Counted from the first letter of the stretch, positions 3-17,088 are shown. The stretch: DNA of 64,000 nt from an uncultured bacterium (GCA_964630875.1 CAZVXF010000003.1:13404-77403); one strand, 5' to 3'. The notes: a model not told the origin generated them from the sequence alone. Program-made: numbers and translations.

Positions 3-365
3 TTACAAAATAACCCCACAGTACCCTGTGTATTAGAAGCATTTGAAAAAGGTGTTCCTCTAAAAGATATGTTGGTTGTTTCTCTTGGAACTGGGCAAGC
101 AAAAGGCCCTCTAGATCCTGTTTCAACATTTTTTGAAATGACGCAACCACAGCATAGAGATGATCAGGCTCTCGGCAAACTAGGAGTTTGTAATTTTCGT
201 TTTCAACATTTTTTCGAGAATGATCCTCCCCATTTAGATGATTGTCGTGAGGAGACAATTGCACGTCTCAAAGAAGCTGGCAAAGCAGTCGTAGATAAAG
301 CTCATGAAAATGATCTCTTAAGAGAGTTATGTAAACTGATATCTCCAGAAATGGGCCGAGAGTGA
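3..365 (+). CDS. patatin-like phospholipase, C-terminal part (5' end lies outside the window)
   Basis: The frame is open from the window edge. The translation ...LQNNPTVPCVLEAFEKGVPLKDMLVVSLGTGQ... carries the NNP and SLGTG blocks typical of patatin-family lipases. Confidence 0.55.
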   Translation, partial: LQNNPTVPCVLEAFEKGVPLKDMLVVSLGTGQAKGPLDPVSTFFEMTQPQHRDDQALGKLGVCNFRFQHFFENDPPHLDDCREETIARLKEAGKAVVDKAHENDLLRELCKLISPEMGRE

Positions 366-533
366 TTCAAAAATCGAGAAATGACTAGAGGCTTGCCCAA
401 ATTTTTTGTTCGCGCTCAACCATTGCGAGATGCAGGGGAAGTGAGAAAAACATCCAGTGAATGCGGCTATTTAAGGTGCTTTTCGACTTCTTCCTTTCTA
501 AAAAGTGATCATAGCATGGTATAATGCAATCGT

Positions 534-2204
534 ATGATGCGACGGCTTCTGAAAACCAATTTACGTTCCTTTTATTTTTTAAACGTCGCTCAATTTTTAG
601 GAGCATTAAACGACAATCTTTTTAAATTTCTCGTAATCTATCTCCTCATCGCGGTGAAAGGGCAAGCATTTGCAAATATTATTTTATCTTTGGCAGGTGC
701 CATTTTCGTGATTCCTTTTCTATTGTTTTCTTCTGCAGCAGGTGTTCTTGCGGATCGGTTGAGCAAAAGAAATATTATTGTTTTTTGCAAGATTTTAGAA
801 GTGAGCATCATGCTCTTTGCATGCATCGCTGTTTACACTGTGTGGGAAATAGGGCTTTACACTGCACTCTTTTTACTCGCTACACATAGTGCAATTTTTG
901 GTCCATCGAAGTATGGGATCATTCCGGAAATTGTCGAACAAAAAATGGTTTCGCGAGTCAACGGCTCATTGTCATCGATGACCTATCTTGCCATGATCAT
1001 CGGTACATTCCTGGTTTCTCTATTAACCTTACTGACAAACAAAAACTTTCTTCTGATTGCCTTCTTCTGCACGCTGGTTGCAGTCACTGGTTTGATCATT
1101 TCTTTTGGCATTCAACGGACAAACGCCGGAAAATCTCACAAAAAAATTAATCCATTTTTCTTTTATGAGATCTATCAAACATTAAAAATTTGTTGGAAAA
1201 TTCCTCATACGTTGCCGTGTATATTCGGTTCTTCCTTCTTTCTTTTCGTGGCTGCTTTTACACAATTGAATATGATCCCTTTTGCCATGGAGTCGCTGAA
1301 CCTCAGTGAAGTCGGTGGAGGATTTCTCTTCCCTGCGGCCGCAATTGGCATTGCGATTGGTTCGATGTTATCTGGGAGAGTGTCAAAAGACACAGTTGAG
1401 CCCGGGATTACCTGCATAGCAGGCTTCTTTTTGGGCATTCTTTTCATTTTGCTCTTCTTATTTTCATCCTCCTTAATTGCTGTCGTAATTCTGCTTGTTC
1501 TCCTTGGAATCGCAGGTGGGTTTTATCTTGTTCCTTGTGATGCATTTTTACAAGTTTATAGTCCGAATGAAAAACGGGGTCAAATCATTGCAGCAGCTAA
1601 TTTTTTAAGCTTTGTTGGCGTTTTGATGGCTGCAGTATACTTGTATATCGTTAGCCAAAATTTTGGCTTTTCTGCGGCAAGCGGATTTGGAATCCTTGGC
1701 ATCCTATGTTTGCTTGTGAATATTGCAATGGTAGGAAGACTTTCTGCGACTTTTTTCCCATTTTTTGCAAATCGCATCTTGAAAAAGTTTCGAAAAGCAC
1801 ATCTTCTTTCAACAATTCCAAATGCCGTCCTTGTTTTAAGAAGCAATTCCTGGTTAGATGCAATCCTTCTTTTTATGTATCTCCCTAATTTAAAAATACT
1901 TACACCCGGGAAATCGTTTCCTCATTTTCCATGGTTTAACCAACTATTTGATACGATCAGAATCCTTCCTCAAGAAGCTAGCTCTAAAAAATTAGCTCAT
2001 GAAATACATGTATGCCAAAAAAAAGACCAGCCCGTTTGTCTTTTTTTCCATCGTGAAGGTGATCCTACAGTGATCGAAGGATATGCTGAAGCCTTAGAGA
2101 ACCTTGATTTGAAAGTCGCTGTTGCACGGATCCAAAAAAGCTCTCATACGAAAAGTTTCTTTGGCTTTAAATACAAGCAAAAGCAGATCAATATTCTATT
2201 CTAA
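534..2204 (+). CDS. MFS transporter, lysophospholipid-transporter (LplT)-like, with a C-terminal PlsC-like domain lacking the HX4D histidine
   Basis: 556-aa ORF. The N-terminus RSFYFLNVAQFLGALNDNLFKFLVIYLL and ~12 hydrophobic helices resemble LplT/Aas-type MFS proteins. The C-terminal ~130 aa has VLVLRSNSWLDAILL where acyltransferases have NHxSxxD. Confidence 0.55.
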   Translation: MMRRLLKTNLRSFYFLNVAQFLGALNDNLFKFLVIYLLIAVKGQAFANIILSLAGAIFVIPFLLFSSAAGVLADRLSKRNIIVFCKILEVSIMLFACIAVYTVWEIGLYTALFLLATHSAIFGPSKYGIIPEIVEQKMVSRVNGSLSSMTYLAMIIGTFLVSLLTLLTNKNFLLIAFFCTLVAVTGLIISFGIQRTNAGKSHKKINPFFFYEIYQTLKICWKIPHTLPCIFGSSFFLFVAAFTQLNMIPFAMESLNLSEVGGGFLFPAAAIGIAIGSMLSGRVSKDTVEPGITCIAGFFLGILFILLFLFSSSLIAVVILLVLLGIAGGFYLVPCDAFLQVYSPNEKRGQIIAAANFLSFVGVLMAAVYLYIVSQNFGFSAASGFGILGILCLLVNIAMVGRLSATFFPFFANRILKKFRKAHLLSTIPNAVLVLRSNSWLDAILLFMYLPNLKILTPGKSFPHFPWFNQLFDTIRILPQEASSKKLAHEIHVCQKKDQPVCLFFHREGDPTVIEGYAEALENLDLKVAVARIQKSSHTKSFFGFKYKQKQINILF

Positions 2205-5038: not shown

Positions 5039-5821
5039 TTAGAAGCGAAAGTCTACAGTAACGGATAAAGCCTCCTCAGAAATCAATCGACTCTCCACAT
5101 TGACCATAAAAAATTGCCCGTTTGAGAGTGTACATCCAAGATACATACCGACAGGACAACGATTTCTTAAATGATCGCTGTGCGCTCCAAAATCGGCAAA
5201 GGAGGATGCAAGCCCCTTAATCACAGTAAGTTCATCCATATATAATGCACCAATATAAGGAGTCAGAATACAAATATGATACGAGAGCCCTAAATTCGCT
5301 TGCCAACCTCTCCATTCACATTTCCCACCTTGTAAAGAAACTGAATCGCCATCAATTGTAAATGTGGAAAGATGATGATGAGAGGCTCCGTACCGAGCGC
5401 CAAGACCAATATCCAATTGATCATATGAATATAGAATGGCTCTTCCTCCGATCGACCACAAAAAATTTCTTGCAGCAGTCAACTGAACATAGCGTATCCG
5501 ATCCGCGAGATCTGTAAAGCGCCAATTGGCATTGACTTTTGAATATCCAAAAACACCATAAAGATCGAGTCTTTCCAAAATATCTAAAGTGGCGGTTCCT
5601 GAGTGTGTGCTGCGCGTATACTTATCGACAAGCCCTGAACCTTTTTCTGCTTGTTCCATATTTCCGTCAAAAACAAAATCGCCCTCATACCCACCCCGAA
5701 TATTCACCCAACATTCGGTTGGAATCATAAAACCCCGACAAAGAATTCTTGGAGAAGAGGGATTCCCAACTGGTGCTGCATGTAAAGAACAGCAAAGCAA
5801 AAGGATCAAAAAGGTTTTCAT
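5039..5821 (-). CDS. MOMP-like outer-membrane beta-barrel protein
   Basis: Signal peptide followed by AAPVGNPSSPRILCRGFMIP...IRGGYEGDFVFDG, collinear with the MOMP LPVGNPAEPSLMIDG...GYYGDFVFDRV (from memory). C-terminal TVDFRF. ATGA overlap with psd. Confidence 0.65.
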   Translation of the reverse strand: MKTFLILLLCCSLHAAPVGNPSSPRILCRGFMIPTECWVNIRGGYEGDFVFDGNMEQAEKGSGLVDKYTRSTHSGTATLDILERLDLYGVFGYSKVNANWRFTDLADRIRYVQLTAARNFLWSIGGRAILYSYDQLDIGLGARYGASHHHLSTFTIDGDSVSLQGGKCEWRGWQANLGLSYHICILTPYIGALYMDELTVIKGLASSFADFGAHSDHLRNRCPVGMYLGCTLSNGQFFMVNVESRLISEEALSVTVDFRF

Positions 5822-11065: not shown

Positions 11066-12937
11066 ATGTCCGAAATTTTGAATCCCGAACAATCACAAGC
11101 CGTTCACTTTGGAGAAGGGCCCTTGCTTGTACTTGCAGGTGCAGGTTCTGGAAAAACGCGCGTCATTACATTTCGTATTGCCCATTTAATTGAAAGCGGA
11201 ATTGATCCTGAACAAATTCTCGCAGTCACTTTTACCAATAAAGCAGCCGAAGAGATGCGATCTAGAATTCATGCATTAACAAACAAACGCGTTTTAGCAA
11301 CAACATTCCATAGTCTAGGCGCACGCATTTTACGCGGATCCATTCATCAATTGGGCTATCAAAATACGTTTGCTATTTACGATGAGGATGATAGTGAAAA
11401 ACTACTGAAAAGTTGCTTAGATCAACTAGGATTTAGTGGCGTCGATAAAGGATTTGTCAAAGAAACGAAAACCTCGATGAGTGAGGCAAAAAACAATCTG
11501 TCCGAAATCAATGACCATGTACTTGCTCAAGTATATCACCTTTATAATCAGAAGCTTAAAGAATGTAATGCAGTTGACTTTGATGATCTTCTTTATTTAA
11601 CAGTGCAACTTTTACAAAATCATCCAGATATTCGAACCTACTATCAAAATAGATGGCGTTATGTCCTGATCGATGAATATCAAGATACCAATATTGCGCA
11701 GTATACAATCGCAAAAATTTTGAGTGAAAAAAACAAAAATATTTTTGTTGTGGGAGATCCCGACCAATCCATTTACTCTTGGCGTGGAGCTCGCTTTCAA
11801 AACATTTTGAATTTTGAGCGCGATTTTCCGGGCGCTGTTGTCATTACGCTTGATCAAAACTATCGAAGTACAAATACAATTCTAGAAGCAGCGAACGCAC
11901 TGATTGAACATAATTCGAATCGTTTTGAAAAGAAATTATGGAGTGAACTAGGCGTTGGTTCAAAAATTGGCCTCTATATCGGTTATAGCGAAAGACAAGA
12001 GGCAGACTTTGTCGCATCGCGTATCAATCAACATTTGCACTACGATTGCTCCTTGGATTCGATCGCGATTTTTTATCGAACAAATGCACAATCGCGCCCC
12101 TTTGAAGATGCGCTTCTTTCTCGAAGAATTCCTTATACAATCATTGGAGGCGTTTCTTTTTACGAAAGAAAAGAAGTTAAAGACATCCTTGCCTATTTGC
12201 GCATGCTCATCTCAAATTCCGATTTAATTTCATTTTTACGTACGATGAATGCTCCGAAAAGAGGCATTGGTCTTACATCTCTTGATAAGTTGGTCAATGC
12301 GGCCTCTAGTCACCAAATTCCCATTCTTACTTTTTGCGATGAGCATTTAGATACAGTTAAACTCGGCGCAAAACAAAGAGAAAGTCTTAAGAATTATATT
12401 CGTATGATTCATCATTTACGCTTGGCAACGCCTCAAATGAGTATCCATGAAGTCATTCAAGAAATCATTACGCAGACTGGATATCTTGCCTTTTTGCAAC
12501 AAGATCCAGACACTGCACAAGAAAGAAAAGAAAATATTGATGAGTTAATGGGAAAAGCAGCGGAATGGGAGGAGGAACAAGAAAATCCATCCATTCAACT
12601 CTTTTTAGAAGAGCTCGCTCTTCGATCGACGATCATCAAAGAAAACCCTGACGCACCATCCATCAAGATGATGACGCTTCACAATAGTAAAGGGCTTGAG
12701 TTTCCAATCGTCTTTTTAGCAGGCCTTGAAGAGGATTTGCTGCCTCATATTAATTCCAAAATGGACCCAGCTGCAATCGAGGAAGAGAGAAGACTTTGCT
12801 ACGTCGGCATTACAAGAGCTAAAAAAACCCTCTATCTCACAGCCTCAACCTACCGCTACACATGGGGGACAGAACGACTCATGGCCCCCTCACGCTTCTT
12901 ACGAGAGCTCCCGGAAGATCTGATTCTCCGATTGTAA
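11066..12937 (+). CDS. uvrD: ATP-dependent DNA helicase UvrD/PcrA family
   Basis: LVLAGAGSGKTRVITFRIAHLI (Walker A), VLIDEYQDTN, VGDPDQSIYSWRGA, LDQNYRST, MTLHNSKGLEFP and RLCYVGITRAK. Confidence 0.9.
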   Translation: MSEILNPEQSQAVHFGEGPLLVLAGAGSGKTRVITFRIAHLIESGIDPEQILAVTFTNKAAEEMRSRIHALTNKRVLATTFHSLGARILRGSIHQLGYQNTFAIYDEDDSEKLLKSCLDQLGFSGVDKGFVKETKTSMSEAKNNLSEINDHVLAQVYHLYNQKLKECNAVDFDDLLYLTVQLLQNHPDIRTYYQNRWRYVLIDEYQDTNIAQYTIAKILSEKNKNIFVVGDPDQSIYSWRGARFQNILNFERDFPGAVVITLDQNYRSTNTILEAANALIEHNSNRFEKKLWSELGVGSKIGLYIGYSERQEADFVASRINQHLHYDCSLDSIAIFYRTNAQSRPFEDALLSRRIPYTIIGGVSFYERKEVKDILAYLRMLISNSDLISFLRTMNAPKRGIGLTSLDKLVNAASSHQIPILTFCDEHLDTVKLGAKQRESLKNYIRMIHHLRLATPQMSIHEVIQEIITQTGYLAFLQQDPDTAQERKENIDELMGKAAEWEEEQENPSIQLFLEELALRSTIIKENPDAPSIKMMTLHNSKGLEFPIVFLAGLEEDLLPHINSKMDPAAIEEERRLCYVGITRAKKTLYLTASTYRYTWGTERLMAPSRFLRELPEDLILRL

Positions 12938-13567
12938 TTGCGAGGAAGCAGAAATATTTATCTTTTCTGGAAATCGAGATGCAATCTCCGGATCAACATT
13001 ACTTAATGATCTAAAACCCAAGCAAAGGAGTAAAGTTTTACTAAGAGATCCTGTATAAAATAATATAGTCGGTATTTGACTATTCGCTGGACTCGCATGA
13101 TACAGTTCATCGGCATGAGAAATAAAGACAAACTCTGCCCTCTTAGAATAGGCAATGCGTTGCAACAACTCAGGCCAACCAATTTTTGTCCTATAGTCGT
13201 TATCTCTAAGCTTGCGTGCGTCAAAACAATGAAATTTTAAGCCCAATTCATTTGCCATTTTCTTAGCTTGGGCCTCCTGCTCAGATTGAGAGCCATAAAA
13301 AAGAACTCGGGTTAGATTAGATTTATTCTGAATTGCATTTTGATTTTTCTTATTTAGTTTTTCAAGAGCTCCTGTTTCTATAGGCATTGGGGATGGTTTC
13401 GAAAAAGGGCGATTCAGAATTACAAATAAAAGGCCAATGCCAGAAAGCGCAAGCAGAACAATTGCGACTATAGGATTGGAAACTGTCTTCCGAATCTCAC
13501 AAAAAAGACGAGGAACACTACTTATGTTTCCAATATTCTCAGCATTCAATTGCATAAAAATCCTCAT
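12899..13567 (-). CDS. membrane-anchored degenerate AAA-like protein (P-loop lost)
   Basis: N-terminal TM (IVAIVLLALSGIGLLFVIL), then an AAA-collinear region. VLFYGSQSEQEAQAKKMANELGLKF stands where VLxYGPPGTGKT would be, EFVFISHADELY at Walker B, and ILFYTGSL...VDPEIASRFPEKINI. 4-nt overlap with the upstream AAA gene. Confidence 0.45.
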   Translation of the reverse strand: MRIFMQLNAENIGNISSVPRLFCEIRKTVSNPIVAIVLLALSGIGLLFVILNRPFSKPSPMPIETGALEKLNKKNQNAIQNKSNLTRVLFYGSQSEQEAQAKKMANELGLKFHCFDARKLRDNDYRTKIGWPELLQRIAYSKRAEFVFISHADELYHASPANSQIPTILFYTGSLSKTLLLCLGFRSLSNVDPEIASRFPEKINISASSQLQSENQIFRELS

Positions 13568-14544
13568 TCTGTTTCAGCGTGGGTTTTAAAGTATGTAATA
13601 ATGCTGTCCTTAATCGCTTCTTTAGTACTAACTGATCCTAATCTAACAGTATCACTCAGCGCATCAAGAGCATCCGATACTTGCCGACCTGATCTACCTA
13701 CAAATGCTTTGCTATTCACCAGAAAATTGGCCATATCCTGATTTAATAAATCTTTTATGCCCGGAATATTCCTGGCATGCGCAAGAAGAATGTCCTTCAT
13801 TGTTTTTGAATCTGGATTCCCAAGCTTCAGCTTATAGGTCATACGATCTAAAAGATTGGGATCAAGACCTTTCTCCTCCTTTGTATTGAAAAGAAACATG
13901 ATCTTATTTTTCTTTTCGGAGTACGTTAAAAATGCATCAAAGGCTCTGCTCACCTCTGGATCGTCTTTATATTTCAATACTAAATGTTTAGCATTATCGA
14001 TCACTAAAATAGTGGGACAAGACAGTTCGCAAAGAGACTTAAAGAATGTAGCTATTTTCACTGGATCCTGTGCTAAGGCAATAAATAAAGGTTCTGGAAA
14101 AAGAAAATAATTAGCGTTTGAATTACGTGCAATTACTTGGCATGCTGTTGTTTTTCCAGTTCCTATCGGTCCAATAAAAATTGCATGATTTAATCTTGTA
14201 TTTTTCTCAACCGCATCTTTACATGTCCTCTGAATTTTTGTATAAATATCAGTAATTTCAGAATTAAAAATTGGGGGTACTATTGGTACCTCGTTACGTG
14301 GATCTGTCCACCATTTTGTAGAATACATTTCCGGACATTTCACCATTTTAAAGGGATCTGTTTCTGTAGACGAAATGCATAGATTACAGAGATCGTATAT
14401 AGTGCGGATATGCCCACCCACGTTGACCGTAAAGGAGAGAGCCTTTTCCCATGTCACATCTGACCAATCAACATCTTTAAGTTGCTCCCATAACTTTCCT
14501 AAATCTATTTTATCCCAAAGCCAGTCAAGCCCTAAAAATCCCAT
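13564..14544 (-). CDS. AAA+ ATPase (classic AAA clade-like) with Walker B DN instead of DE
   Basis: AIFIGPIGTGKTTACQVIARN (Walker A), CPTILVIDNAKHL (Walker B position) and IMFLFNTKEEKGLDPNLLDRM...LGNPD (sensor-1 and arginine region). The reading frame continues upstream through one TAG into ORF 14560..14703. Confidence 0.75.
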   Translation of the reverse strand: MGFLGLDWLWDKIDLGKLWEQLKDVDWSDVTWEKALSFTVNVGGHIRTIYDLCNLCISSTETDPFKMVKCPEMYSTKWWTDPRNEVPIVPPIFNSEITDIYTKIQRTCKDAVEKNTRLNHAIFIGPIGTGKTTACQVIARNSNANYFLFPEPLFIALAQDPVKIATFFKSLCELSCPTILVIDNAKHLVLKYKDDPEVSRAFDAFLTYSEKKNKIMFLFNTKEEKGLDPNLLDRMTYKLKLGNPDSKTMKDILLAHARNIPGIKDLLNQDMANFLVNSKAFVGRSGRQVSDALDALSDTVRLGSVSTKEAIKDSIITYFKTHAETE

Positions 14545-14841
14545 AGTCGGTATTGAAGACTAAGTTTTTCGCGCCAAAACAGACGTGTTAATATTTGTAT
14601 CAGATAAACATGTATTCGTATCAATAGTCTTTGATTCTTGATTTCGTTGAATGTTTTCTTTAGGACATTGGGGATTCGTATTAAAAAAATTTCCTATTCT
14701 CATATAAGCCCTCCTTTTTAAAATTAGCTCTTTTTTTCAGACTTCTCGTCATTATTTCCTGTTATCCATTGATAAAGCCGTTTCACAGACATAACTCCTG
14801 CACTAACTACTGCGCTACCAATGACTACCTTTGTGACACCT
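14407..14841. repeat. segmental duplication, copy A (AAA 5' end + 47-aa ORF + 3' end of the 92-aa gene)
   Basis: Aligned by eye to 15625..16048 at offset 1218. There are 3 substitutions over the first ~300 nt, then a 1-nt indel, a short diverged patch and a 12-nt indel. Confidence 0.85.
14560..14703 (-). CDS. 47-aa ORF encoding the shared N-terminal module (MRIGNFF...TSVLARKT), in frame with the AAA+ gene
   Basis: Not in the ORF track (<60 aa). ATG 14703 is preceded by AAAGGAGGGCTTAT (strong SD). Hand translation: MRIGNFFNTNPQCPKENIQRNQESKTIDTNTCLSDTNINTSVLARKT*. It is a paralog of the N-termini of the 92-aa and ANK proteins. Confidence 0.5.
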   Translation of the reverse strand: MRIGNFFNTNPQCPKENIQRNQESKTIDTNTCLSDTNINTSVLARKT

Positions 14842-15002
14842 GCTAAAACTGCGCCTATTGTCCAACTGCATGGGTCGATGATCCCCATCGTGGGAAGTGA
14901 TGCAAAAACATCTCTAGCGACAACTTTTGTTTTGTCTTCTTGAGCTTGTTCAACGCGCTTTTCTCCTGATTGCTTAGGAAGAGAAATATTTTCAACTCTC
15001 AT
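14724..15002 (-). CDS. small membrane protein: N-module + VVARDVFASLPTMGIIDP motif + TM + basic tail
   Basis: 92-aa ORF starting 13 nt downstream of the CPBP gene. The hydrophobic segment CSWTIGAVLAGVTKVVIGSAVVSAGVMSV is followed by KR. Confidence 0.6.
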   Translation of the reverse strand: MRVENISLPKQSGEKRVEQAQEDKTKVVARDVFASLPTMGIIDPCSWTIGAVLAGVTKVVIGSAVVSAGVMSVKRLYQWITGNNDEKSEKKS

Positions 15003-15015
15003 AGTTTTTTTTCCT

Positions 15016-15465
15016 TTATAAAAATAGGGGTTTCAATGCCTGACAGTTATTCGCCATATGGGCTCCTATACTGCCTGCGATTTTAAGCTGAGATTCCTTA
15101 ATCATTCCAAGTTGTAGCCCAAGCAAAAATGCATATTCTTGATTCTGATGCGGGAAAGCAAAGAGAAAGGACGAAATGATAATTTGTGCGCTTTTCGCAA
15201 ATAACGGGGCAAATATTCTTTGCGAGGCCTTTTGTAAAATCACACCTTGGAGTAGACCTCGATAAAGGATTTCTTCATAAATAGGCGCAAAAAGAATTCC
15301 CAGACAAAGACATTGTATTTTTACGTCTCGATCTACTCGAGAAATATCTAGTGACTCTTTAGGTTTTTTGCAAATGATCAATTGAGAGAGCTTTTCAAGC
15401 GGGAAATATCCTAAAGCTCCAAGACCCAATCCGAAACAAAAACGCTTTGCAATATCTTGCATCAT
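15016..15465 (-). CDS. CPBP family intramembrane glutamic endopeptidase (CAAX protease/bacteriocin-processing family)
   Basis: All three family motifs are present: PIYEEILYRGLLQG (EExxxR), FLFAFPHQ (FxxxH) and GAHMANN (HxxxN). The protein is multi-pass hydrophobic. Confidence 0.8.
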   Translation of the reverse strand: MMQDIAKRFCFGLGLGALGYFPLEKLSQLIICKKPKESLDISRVDRDVKIQCLCLGILFAPIYEEILYRGLLQGVILQKASQRIFAPLFAKSAQIIISSFLFAFPHQNQEYAFLLGLQLGMIKESQLKIAGSIGAHMANNCQALKPLFL

Positions 15466-15619
15466 ATTTTAGCGGCAAAGATTAAGGAGTAAGTAATTTT
15501 TTTATCAATACTTTTTTGTTGCATTCTCTATCTTTGATTTTTTAAGATTGCTGATCTGAAAAATGGAGAACTTGTAAACAACTCTCGCGTAAACGCGAAA
15601 GCTTTATCGTCCGTTTATA

Positions 15620-15921
15620 GCGGCGATATGCCCACCCACGTTGACAGTAAAGGAGAGAGCCTTTTCCCATGTCACATCTGACCAATCAACATCTTTAAGT
15701 TGCTCCCATAACTTTCCTAAATCTATTTTATCCCAAAGCCAGTCAAGCCCTAAAAATCCCATAGTCGGTATTGAAGACTAAGTTTTTCGCGCCAAAACAG
15801 ACGTGTTAATATTTGTATCAGATAAACATGTATTCGTATCAATAGTCTTTGATTCTTGATTTCGTTGAATGTTTTCTTTAGGACATTGGAGATTCGTATC
15901 AAAAAAATTTCCTATTCTCAT
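15620..15921 (-). pseudogene. duplicated 47-aa N-module ORF plus a truncated 5' remnant (~46 codons) of the AAA+ gene
   Basis: Second copy of ATG/SD/47-aa ORF (two amino-acid differences, N8D and P11L), the same TAG, then MGFLGLDWLWDK...VNVGGHI. Homology stops at ~15625, so the ATPase domain is missing. Confidence 0.7.
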
Positions 15922-16048
15922 ATAAGCCCTCCTTTTTTAAAATCACTTATTCTCTTCTGCCTTATCGTCATTATTTCCTGTTATCCATTGATAAAGCCCT
16001 TTCACAGACATAACTACTGCGCTACCAATGACAACCTTTGTGTCACCT
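15625..16048. repeat. segmental duplication, copy B
   Basis: Near-identical to 14407..14841. See copy A. Confidence 0.85.
15943..16042 (-). pseudogene. orphan 3' remnant of a 92-aa-type small membrane protein gene
   Basis: Encodes ...GDTKVVIGSAVVMSVKGLYQWITGNNDDKAEENK*, compared with ...GVTKVVIGSAVVSAGVMSVKRLYQWITGNNDEKSEKKS* in the intact copy. It is out of frame with, and immediately downstream of, the ANK gene stop. Confidence 0.55.
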
Positions 16049-16498
16049 CTTGGAACGAGCACCGTACGACTTTAATAATGAAATCAACTCTTTATCATTT
16101 TTCTTTTTCGCTGTATCTAAAGGCGTATTGCCTTCATTATCAGGAATATTTGGATCGGCTCCATTTTCTAATAATAACTTACATATTCTAACACTATCAC
16201 CATCGCTTGGCAGTTTTACTTGAAAATGTAACGCTGTATTCCCATCATTGCTCCGGTGATTTATCATTGCTTTTTTAGATTTGATGTTCTGACGGTTCAT
16301 TTCTTGATTGTCTCCTTTCCAAGAAAAATAACCGATTACTAAAGCAGCGACCAATCCAACACTTAATGGATCAATGATCCCCATCGTAGGAAGTGATGCA
16401 AATACATCTCTAGCAACAACACTTGTTTTCCCTTTACTATCTTGTTCAGCACAAGATTGTATTGATTGACTTGATCTATAAAAATTTTCAATTCTCAT
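16043..16498 (-). CDS. N-module + VVARDVFASLPTMGIIDP + TM + ankyrin-repeat protein
   Basis: Start set at ATG 16498 (SD GGAGAAAGAGC). The track start 16561 is out-of-frame read-through of the CPBP2 tail. The C-terminus NDGNTALHF...LLENGADPNIPDNEGNTPLDTAKKKNDKELISLLKSYGA gives two ANK repeats. Confidence 0.75.
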   Translation of the reverse strand: MRIENFYRSSQSIQSCAEQDSKGKTSVVARDVFASLPTMGIIDPLSVGLVAALVIGYFSWKGDNQEMNRQNIKSKKAMINHRSNDGNTALHFQVKLPSDGDSVRICKLLLENGADPNIPDNEGNTPLDTAKKKNDKELISLLKSYGARSKR

Positions 16499-16954
16499 GC
16501 TCTTTCTCCATGATAAATAGTGATCTTTGCGCAAGACAGTTATTGGCCATATGAGCGCCAATACTACCTGCTAATTTTAGCTTCGATTCCTTGATCATCC
16601 CAAGTTCAAGCCTAGTAAAAGAGCATATTCCTTATGCCAATGCAACGATGCAAACAGGCACGAGACACTCAGTACTTGCATTCCACAAGCTAGAATAGAA
16701 GAGAAACACTTCTGGCAGACTTTTTGTAAAATAACTCCTTGAAGAAACCCTCGATAAATCGCCTCTTCATATACAGGAGCTAACAAAACACCACGACAAA
16801 CACATTCAATTTTTACATCAAGATCAATGGATGAATAATCGATTGATTTTTTACTCACTTCTCTTTGCATTAAGCAAGATACAAATTCATTTGGGAAATA
16901 CCCGACAACTCCAAGACACGCCCCGAAACCAAAACGCTTTGCAATGTTCATCAA
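16488..16954 (-). pseudogene. CPBP family protease paralog disrupted by a 1-nt deletion
   Basis: EEAIYRGFLQG and FASLH are present. At ~16597 the sequence reads gga tga where copy 1 has gga atg a. The shifted frame restores MIKESKLKLAGSIGAHMANNC (copy 1 has MIKESQLKIAGSIGAHMANNC), so the HxxxN motif is downstream of the frameshift. Confidence 0.7.
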
Positions 16955-17088
16955 AAACTCTGAAAGTGAGAAGCGATAGGTTTAAAACTATTTACAAGTC
17001 AATTTTTTTTAGTACTTCCTAAAAAATCTTTAATAAGCCATCATTTTATGATGTTTATTTTTTCAATCCAATAATAGGGAGGGATGCT

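Follow-up and report, generated by a model that had tools for sequence, protein, structure and literature searches.

The 64,000-nt stretch of DNA analysed here (the window), which comes from a metagenome-assembled genome (MAG) named "Chlamydiales bacterium" (GCA_964630875.1, CAZVXF010000003.1:13404-77403), encodes on its minus strand two putative intramembrane proteases of the CPBP family (PF02517), CPBP1 and CPBP2, each followed by the gene of a small protein (small1 and small2, respectively) that contains one and the same 18-residue motif, VVARDVFASLPTMGIIDP. The sequence and comparative data establish a conserved operon unit, located in a hypervariable locus together with duplicates of a single module. 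The native carrier of the motif is one lineage-specific AAA+ ATPase. The reading that we favour, to which we give somewhat less than an even chance, is a lineage-specific three-gene operon comprising a minimal CPBP, an AAA+ protein with a leader-motif-anchor N-terminus and an AAA paralogue with a degenerate Walker A, where the CPBP would recognise the motif and probably clip it, as an N-terminal variant of the logic of the MrtJ/JDVT-CTERM system.

The open reading frames (ORFs) confirmed the arrangement given in a preliminary description of the window, i.e., two minus-strand CPBP genes each preceding a small gene, with a gap of 13 nt between CPBP1 and the start of small1 (15016 and 15002). The proteins small1 and small2 are more closely related to each other than to any other relative (58% identity over residues 1-53), and their residues 27-44 are identical at all 18 positions. 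The codons of this stretch differ at five positions (codons 28, 32, 37, 42 and 43) and all the changes are synonymous, so that the count made earlier proved exact. When analysed by NG86, the motif codons gave a proportion of synonymous differences (pS) of 0.36 and a proportion of non-synonymous differences (pN) of 0, whereas pN reached 0.37 upstream (codons 1-26) and 0.49 downstream (codons 45-53), with a pS of about 0.30 in both flanks and a ratio of non-synonymous to synonymous substitution rates (dN/dS) of at least 1. The non-synonymous contrast between the motif and its flanks yielded a Fisher P of 1.6e-7. A recent copy or a gene conversion was rejected as the source of the 18/18 identity, because the pS of the motif equals that of the flanks. 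Since the synonymous divergence matches while pN is 0, the identity reflects selection on the peptide, as had been proposed.

The same behaviour was observed among the six type-I copies of the module, where the 14-codon motif core has a pN of 0-0.13 and a pS of 0.26-0.74, and the 14 codons just upstream have a pN of 0.17-0.63, which is about equal to pS. Thus, purifying selection acts on the motif core in all pairs and the upstream codons are near-neutral, i.e., the leader may diverge while the motif is kept. The motif stays under selection even in the stubs that have no ATPase.

The motif has the consensus [IV]VA[KR][DE]VFAS[LF]PT[IML]G, and its core, [AS]S[LIF]PTxG, reads LPTMG in the window and FPTIG, LPTIG, LPTLG, IPTLG or IPTAG in the orthologues. 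A metagenome scan with the CPBP alignment yielded 61 distant CPBP loci (at most 41% identity), none of them with the AAA+ gene or the module, which were used as negative controls. The core pattern was found four times at 13.5-16.5 kb of the window (within 2.4 kb), zero times elsewhere in the 64 kb and once in 321 kb of the control loci. A protein search with small1 (5.8e9 clusters, E<=10) returned only itself.

The hydropathy profiles of small1 and small2 show, as previously noted, a hydrophobic stretch and then Lys/Arg residues after the motif (KR in small1, K...KSKK in small2). This is a single hydrophobic stretch of 16-29 aa, and no bilobed domain of about 40 aa such as that of Inc proteins was detected. 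There is no Cys inside the motif; some copies have Cys at variable positions downstream, and small2 and the AAA+ protein P0009 have none. The tripartite layout that had been compared with the LPXTG and PEP-CTERM sorting signals is thus present in small1 and small2, although the signal is N-terminal and the likeness to LPXTG superficial. A sortase reading was rejected, because LPTMG has the T in the wrong register, the orthologue variants differ and the signal is N-terminal (no systematic search for a sortase gene was made).

The small proteins resemble the N-terminus of an ATPase. In the related contigs L003, L004 and L005, an AAA+ gene of 347-351 aa follows the CPBP gene immediately (10-nt gap or overlap), and its product begins with MRIENHFRPPQS..., continues with IVAKDVFASFPTIGMDP and then enters a transmembrane (TM) helix; small1 is 40-47% identical to these N-termini. 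Thus, small1 and small2 are shortened or chimeric duplicates of this N-terminal module of the AAA+ protein, small2 being fused to the ANK repeats recognised by Pfam. Because their module is the AAA+ N-terminus in the relatives, the small proteins do not constitute a family of sorted payloads. The idea of a portable signal mounted on variable payloads (TM stub, ANK, AAA+) gives way to that of a single native carrier, with the 92-aa and ANK proteins as by-products of a local duplication. The small ANK genes of L009 and L010 were considered as donors of the ANK part of small2 and rejected, as there is only a generic ANK similarity (35% over 40 aa). Genes of 92-93 aa with ANK repeats adjoin the AAA+ loci that have no CPBP (L010 5566-5847 and L009 5109-5387).

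The window contains its own copy of the AAA+ gene (PF00004, E 7.9e-14; Walker A GPIGTGKT). The short frame orf47a is in frame with the 326-aa AAA+ ORF and interrupted by TAG alone, and the start Met of the AAA+ ORF is the M of the motif. The gene small1 is also found in a sister assembly (GCA_035480255.1, contig DATIHY010000082.1; L073), which is 99.94% identical to window positions 19003-10724. There are five differences only, four of them within 77 nt (14485-14561; 4442-4518 in L073) and the fifth a 1-nt indel at 15651, in a decayed duplicate of the AAA+ gene. L073 has TTG (Leu) for the TAG of the window and ATT (Ile) for its ATG, the other two of the four being synonymous, and its AAA+ gene is a single ORF of 379 aa (HSX13861.1) with leader, SSIPTIG motif and AAA+ domain. 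The relative P0008 also has the uninterrupted form, MKIGNFF...ARKVIASIPTLGFLGID. Thus, what had been taken for a third copy of the N-terminal module preceding the AAA+ gene is the N-terminus of that gene, split by TAG. The four clustered window variants all match the truncated copy B (15612-15911), and for this reason the split allele arose in one of two ways, by conversion with the pseudogene copy as donor or through a chimeric assembly of repeats that are 95% identical. A fourth partial copy of the module is made up of orf47b (15921-15778) and a 52-aa AAA+ stub.

The Walker B Glu (PTILVIDNAKHL, about 13990-14010; alignment A4) is replaced by Asn in the window AAA+ and in P0008, by Gln in P0013 and by Asp in P0010, and is Glu in the others; several members of the family may bind ATP without hydrolysing it. 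The whole AAA+ family amounts to about eight 50%-identity clusters at E<1e-18 (exhaustive HMMER search, 1.84e9 representatives). The third gene of the operon encodes p222, whose Walker A is degenerate (FYGSQSEQEA; FRGALDKQEA in the paralogues) and whose Walker-B-like FVF[IV]SHADE is kept. No Pfam or NCBIfam match was found for this type of AAA-like paralogue. It is present after the AAA+ gene wherever a contig reaches that far: homologues with 33-46% identity to p222 lie directly downstream of AAA+ in L003, L004, L005, L008, L009, L010 and L011, often overlapping the AAA+ stop (L003 7503-8060, L004 7497-8054, L005 7460-8011, L008 1583-2740).

The preliminary description implied that the pairing of CPBP and motif should recur in other genomes, and it does. 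In six related contigs (L001, L003, L004, L005, L007 and L008) a CPBP gene is located directly upstream of an AAA+ gene, with at most 40 nt between the two or an overlap of up to 38 nt, and the AAA+ product begins with the leader and the core motif, in most cases followed by a TM helix. Four of these (L001, L003, L004 and L005) are syntenic with the window, sharing a heptosyltransferase, a 141-aa ORF, a 116-aa ORF, CPBP, AAA+, a 185-aa ORF and, on the opposite strand, UvrD. The AAA+ gene of L001 is decayed, and L005 carries an extra 86-aa stub between CPBP and AAA+ that consists of leader, IVARDVFASLPTLGFDP and helix. A fifth relative of CPBP1 (L006) is encoded on a 1.3-kb contig that stops shortly past the CPBP gene, leaving no neighbours to read. 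In the more distant L007 and L008, the AAA+ genes P0008 and P0009 lie 8 and 40 nt, respectively, downstream of CPBP genes whose products are 41-44% identical to CPBP1, and their motifs read ASIPTLG and SSIPTAG. The adjacency persists at an AAA+ identity of 31-39%. Moreover, every duplicated copy of the module (small1, small2 and the 86-aa protein of L005) stands directly after a CPBP gene, and two anciently diverged CPBPs (dS about 2) each keep a motif gene directly downstream.

The loci that have no CPBP complete this comparison. P0012 (L009), in a syntenic neighbourhood without CPBP at the locus, has no motif, and that of P0015 (L010/L011) is degraded. P0019 (L074 3528-7435), a more distant TM-anchored AAA relative, lies among three tandem AAA paralogues (460, 403 and 370 aa), and CPBP and motif are both absent there. 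Neither the module pattern nor the AAA+ patterns detected a relative among the GTDB species-representative genomes; the lineage is missing from that collection. The locus behaves as a hypervariable island, UvrD being 85% identical among five loci where AAA+ is only 31-56% identical.

CPBP1 is a clear member of PF02517 (E 2.7e-13; 50.5 bits, cut-off 22.4) with the catalytic motifs E64-E65-x3-R69, F102-x3-H106 and H136-x3-N140, which are invariant in alignments A6 and A7 (7 and 6 relatives, respectively); five relatives are 55-75% identical to it. Its top NCBIfam matches are all below their cut-offs (MrtJ, 41.3 vs 75; Mrt core, 29.9 vs 100; MrtS, 27.3 vs 130; and also the VPEID-CTERM exosortase/protease). 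Because of these scores, CPBP1 is outside the MrtJ/Mrt-type sorting families, although they are its top matches. A profile search of the PDB with the CPBP alignment gave no meaningful match to any chain.

CPBP2 is 53% identical to CPBP1 residues 2-120 and, with 51-57% identity, is an outgroup to all the orthologues (dS about 2 vs CPBP1). Its N-terminal part matches PF02517 with E 1.2e-6 and 29.1 bits over profile positions 10-59 only. A 1-nt deletion near 16600, common to both assemblies, ends the ORF at 118-119 aa and leaves the HMANN helix encoded in another frame. The statement that EExxxR, FxxxH and HxxxN are intact in the protease therefore holds for CPBP1 and not for CPBP2, where HxxxN is out of frame. 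This out-of-frame part is 76% identical to CPBP1 residues 117-149 by tblastn, and it still shows a pN/pS of about 0.17 and a dN/dS of about 0.06 vs CPBP1, which indicates that the frameshift is recent. L007 also has two divergently oriented CPBP genes, 167-655 (minus) and 778-1341 (plus), with 32% mutual identity, upstream of the AAA+ gene P0008, pointing to a recurrent duplication of CPBP at this locus.

The favoured reading draws on systems in which a CPBP is dedicated to one kind of target. The closest is MrtJ/JDVT-CTERM (NF033192), where in 16 of 17 cases the gene of MrtJ neighbours that of its JDVT-CTERM target (Haft 2023, 10.1101/2023.06.07.544157). Both systems have a very small CPBP encoded beside its presumed target, a short motif right before a TM helix followed by basic residues (here in small1 and small2), and a D/E-P pair at the helix, and MrtJ provides the best NCBIfam model for CPBP1. 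They differ in that CPBP1 scores 41.3 against the cut-off of 75, that the target in the window has no N-terminal export signal and that its AAA+ domain is cytoplasmic of the helix, so that cleavage would remove a short leader and not release a surface protein. The hosts are also different, Chlamydiales here and Pseudomonadota for MrtJ.

In the case of the myxosortase MrtX, a CPBP with a TM-adjacent tripartite signal (MYXO-CTERM), cleavage has been shown experimentally (PMC11980579), proving that bacterial CPBPs can be dedicated processing enzymes. MrtX further serves dozens of targets per genome, its processing depends on a C-terminal Cys and probably involves a lipid link, and its targets are sorted to the surface through the type II secretion system (T2SS); none of this is seen here. 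The preliminary claim that no such pairing was known is outdated, since a CPBP with an adjacent tripartite target had been described in these two systems, although not in Chlamydiae and not for an N-terminal signal. The CPBP protein MroQ of S. aureus removes the N-terminal membrane-associated leader of a small precursor, AgrD (10.1101/2021.12.29.473670; PMC9388083). Its substrate, unlike the one proposed here, is a thiolactone pheromone intermediate, and CPBP1 scores 25 bits with NF046050 (cut-off 270). Rce1, the type II CAAX prenyl protease and founder of PF02517, has the same EExxxR/FxxxH/HxxxN signature, although it is much larger and cuts after a prenylated Cys at a C-terminal CAAX box. 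The MmRce1 protein has 8 TM helices, and the MroQ and AgrD genes are not known to be adjacent in one operon. A functional analogy is provided by SpoIVFB, an intramembrane protease that activates the membrane-associated cytoplasmic pro-sigma-K by cutting a short N-terminal pro-sequence (PMC11486902), although SpoIVFB is an S2P metalloprotease and not a CPBP, and the substrates are unrelated.

According to the favoured reading, the CPBP would recognise the S-x-P-T-x-G segment, a helix breaker at the edge of the membrane in its operon partners, and would probably cleave there, removing the variable N-terminal leader. As a result, the ATPase might be matured or regulated, or the leader peptide might be released. 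The scheme of a dedicated CPBP, an adjacent target and a motif beside a TM helix would thus be moved to the N-terminal end of a protein that must keep its large domain in the cytoplasm.

Several observations weigh against this reading. All the evidence is comparative and comes from about 10 metagenomic contigs of a single uncultured Chlamydiales clade; the contigs are relatives with shared synteny, so that part of the adjacency is inherited and the contigs do not count as independent cases. The window signal falls outside the definition of the known CPBP sorting signals, since it is not C-terminal (residues about 26-44 of proteins of 86-379 aa) and has no invariant Cys as JDVT-CTERM does. The TM helix after the motif is found in the AAA+ proteins of the L003/L004/L005/L008 type, whereas those of the window/L007 type keep the motif with no clear TM helix and have a W-rich amphipathic segment, and the AAA+ orthologues usually have a single K after the helix and no Arg cluster. 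The absence of CPBP from L009 is read at the level of the locus only, and P0015 (L010/L011), at a second locus without CPBP in the genome of the sister assembly, retains a partial or degraded motif, SLSIPTAVLG. The profile search with the module retrieved three small proteins only and missed the known AAA+ carriers, and it is thus not exhaustive for other payloads. Finally, the AF2 model of CPBP1, built from a 6-sequence alignment, is all-helical and of low quality (mean pLDDT 49).

The same adjacency and co-restriction data fit a docking function in place of cleavage, an explanation that we regard as rather unlikely. The CPBP and the membrane-anchored AAA+ would form a stable complex, a split machine of the FtsH or rhomboid/p97 kind for the extraction and cutting of other membrane proteins, the motif would hold the ATPase to the protease, and the stubs would be remnants or competitive regulators. 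The AAA+ belongs to the classic clade together with CDC48/p97, FtsH and Msp1, the eukaryotic rhomboid RHBDL4 recruits p97, and the constant presence of a second AAA paralogue with a degenerate Walker A suggests a hetero-oligomeric machine. However, the change of the Walker B Glu to N, Q or D in several members, including that of the window, argues against a processive unfoldase, as does the lack of an evident canonical aromatic pore loop on reading the alignment, and the strict selection on the motif in stubs without ATPase fits a substrate or decoy at least equally well.

Less probable again is the absence of any direct link, the motif being a membrane-insertion, anchoring or oligomerisation element of the AAA+ and the CPBP an inherited operon neighbour with another substrate. 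The narrow origin of the CPBP-linked loci, all from one clade with shared synteny (UvrD 85% among five), the small size of the family (the eight or so clusters mentioned above) and the paralogue P0015, which keeps part of the motif at a locus without CPBP, speak for this explanation. It accounts poorly for an adjacency (8-40-nt gaps or overlaps) that persists while the rest of the hypervariable locus is reshuffled, with AAA+ proteins only 31-35% identical where UvrD is 85% identical, for the two anciently diverged CPBPs that each precede a motif gene, and for a selection on the motif that outlasts the ATPase.

A variant of the processing scheme, to which we assign a lower probability still, would turn the CPBP into an "N-terminal sortase". 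The AAA+ would insert N-out/C-in with the motif in the periplasm, and the CPBP would clip S-x-P-T|x-G, leaving the anchored ATPase and freeing the fast-evolving leader (30-40 aa; dN/dS at least 1) as a periplasmic or secreted peptide acting as signal, effector or decoy. The genes of small1, small2 and the 86-aa protein of L005 would then be peptide-precursor genes and not debris, and Chlamydiae would, if this is true, possess a ribosomal peptide-release system of a new class.

We give little credence to the proposal that the module is a secretion signal (e.g., type III) or a chaperone-binding region that has been reassorted onto a TM stub, ANK repeats and an AAA+ domain, all acting in the host or on the inclusion membrane, with a CPBP that is unrelated or host-directed. 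An Rce1-like effector of the type III secretion system (T3SS) is reported in Lawsonia (PMC11796264). Effectors would be in keeping with the fusion of ANK repeats to the module, with a locus that is fast-evolving, duplicated and decaying, with the recurrent MR[IV] starts described below (the MRIGNII of the L009 ANK protein resembles the MRIGNFF of orf47), and with a CesT-family chaperone gene located about 5 kb from the paralogous locus L010. Nevertheless, the conserved part is residues 27-44 beside the TM helix and not the extreme N-terminus, the first 26 residues being neutral; there is one short hydrophobic stretch instead of the bilobed domain of Inc type; the single recurrent payload is one AAA+ family; and the L009 ANK protein with the MRIGN start has neither the motif nor a neighbouring CPBP. 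It is hardly credible that small1, although small and with a leader before a G/A/V-rich hydrophobic segment, is a membrane-active bacteriocin-like peptide against which the CPBP confers self-immunity, as CPBP ("Abi") proteins reportedly do for bacteriocins in Firmicutes (Kjos et al., 2010). This reading is largely excluded by the orthologue architecture, in which the same leader, motif and helix are the N-terminus of an ATPase of 347-379 aa. Moreover, no ABC exporter with a C39 peptidase stood out among the genes called and the Pfam matches of the loci, neither the CPBP nor the small protein matched PADLOC or another system, and the host belongs to an obligate intracellular lineage.

From high to low coordinates, the minus-strand order of the elements is CPBP2, small2, a remnant of a small1 3' end, orf47b, the AAA+ stub, CPBP1, small1, orf47a, the 326-aa AAA+ ORF and p222 (Table 1).

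Table 1. Elements of the CPBP/AAA+ locus, with positions counted from the first nucleotide of the window.
Element	Position	Strand	Basis and remarks
CPBP2, N-terminal part, 118 aa from ATG 16951	16595..16951	-	PF02517 match; EExxxR and FxxxH; premature TGA through a 1-nt deletion
CPBP2, C-terminal part, shifted frame, ...GMIKESKLKLAGSIGAHMANN...	16488..16610	-	tblastn; overlaps the start of small2
small2, 151 aa	16043..16498	-	Leader, motif, short hydrophobic helix, basic stretch, ANK repeats; annotated as HSX13858.1 in the sister assembly
Motif VVARDVFASLPTMGIIDP in small2, codons 27-44	16367..16420	-	Codon comparison
Non-coding remnant of a small1-like 3' end, just past the small2 stop	15943..16047	-	Aligns with small1 residues 55-90 (75% aa identity); repeats D6 and D10 are 87-95% identical in nt
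Decayed duplicate of the AAA+ 5' end: orf47b (15921-15778), TAG, 52-aa AAA+ stub (15762-15604)	15604..15921	-	Nucleotide repeat and tblastn
CPBP1, 149 aa	15016..15465	-	PF02517; annotated as HSX13859.1, CPBP family intramembrane glutamic endopeptidase, in the sister assembly
small1, 92 aa	14724..15002	-	Leader 1-26, motif 27-44, hydrophobic helix about 47-73, KR, charged tail
Motif VVARDVFASLPTMGIIDP in small1, codons 27-44	14871..14924	-	Codon comparison
AAA+ gene with its own N-terminal module: orf47a (14703-14560), in-frame TAG (14562-14560), 326-aa ORF from ATG 14544	13564..14703	-	PF00004, frame reading
Motif variant VLARKT*SSIPTMGFLGLD at the orf47a/AAA+ junction	14524..14580	-	Frame reading, pattern scan
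p222, 222 aa, membrane-anchored AAA-like paralogue, third operon gene	12899..13567	-	Homologues downstream of AAA+ in relatives; TM at 28-56

The region is a mosaic of tandem duplications with decayed pieces. The duplicate of the orf47/AAA+ 5' end is about 98% identical in nucleotide sequence to 14394-14693 over 300 nt, the small1 3' ends are 87-95% identical, and the 5' ends of the small genes and the CPBP genes are about 70-80% identical. The remnant located directly past the small2 stop, with 75% aa identity to small1, corrects the view that small1 and small2 are simply unrelated beyond residue 45 or so. The scan for promoters and terminators gave counts not above the shuffled expectation, which speaks neither for nor against an operon. 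Rfam detected only two tRNAs, both distant from the locus, and PADLOC matched no system; CPBP1, small1 and p222 had no hits and AAA+ only weak generic AAA matches.

When compared with the syntenic loci (window 17089-21206 vs L003 4072-6000), the space that separates the 140-aa and 116-aa ORFs from the CPBP genes holds additional genes in the window, i.e., p465 (19364-20761, plus strand), p504 (17411-18925, minus strand) and p106 (17089-17409, plus strand). The last 58 residues or so of p504 are similar to the C-terminal end of p106, which is convergent with it (38% identity, E 5e-9). Within p504, positions 17766-17938 are repeated directly at 17976-18148 (73%), which gives a period of about 210 nt. 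A homologue of p106 is found in L005 (5033-5350). It was also observed that many unrelated ORFs at 12899-21206 start with MR[IV]: p222 with MRIFMQ, small1 with MRVENI, small2 with MRIENF, orf47 with MRIGNF, p116 with MRIQGS and p140 with MRISST. Such starts also occur at 4939-5899 of L001/L003, and the L009 ANK protein (5109-5387) begins with MRIGNII. The recurrent start could be a shared translation-start context or a secretion-related N-terminus.

Taken as a whole, the system is best classed as an N-terminal, ATPase-borne extension of the CPBP-plus-adjacent-target systems, and a dedicated pairing of CPBP and motif is supported. The family is tiny and known from metagenomic contigs only, in one uncultured lineage, and our literature search found no paper tying PF02517 to Chlamydia. 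The locus clearly illustrates a hypervariable region that undergoes duplication in a lineage of obligate intracellular bacteria, and it offers a compact and testable candidate pair, a 149-aa enzyme and a 92-aa putative substrate. Bacterial CPBP proteases are abundant, and very few have a known substrate. The rule of a small CPBP encoded next to its target, with a motif beside a TM helix in the latter, has so far been seen only for C-terminal, Cys-containing signals, and this locus would extend it to a signal at the N-terminus, to a carrier that is a cytoplasmic ATPase and to the Chlamydiae.

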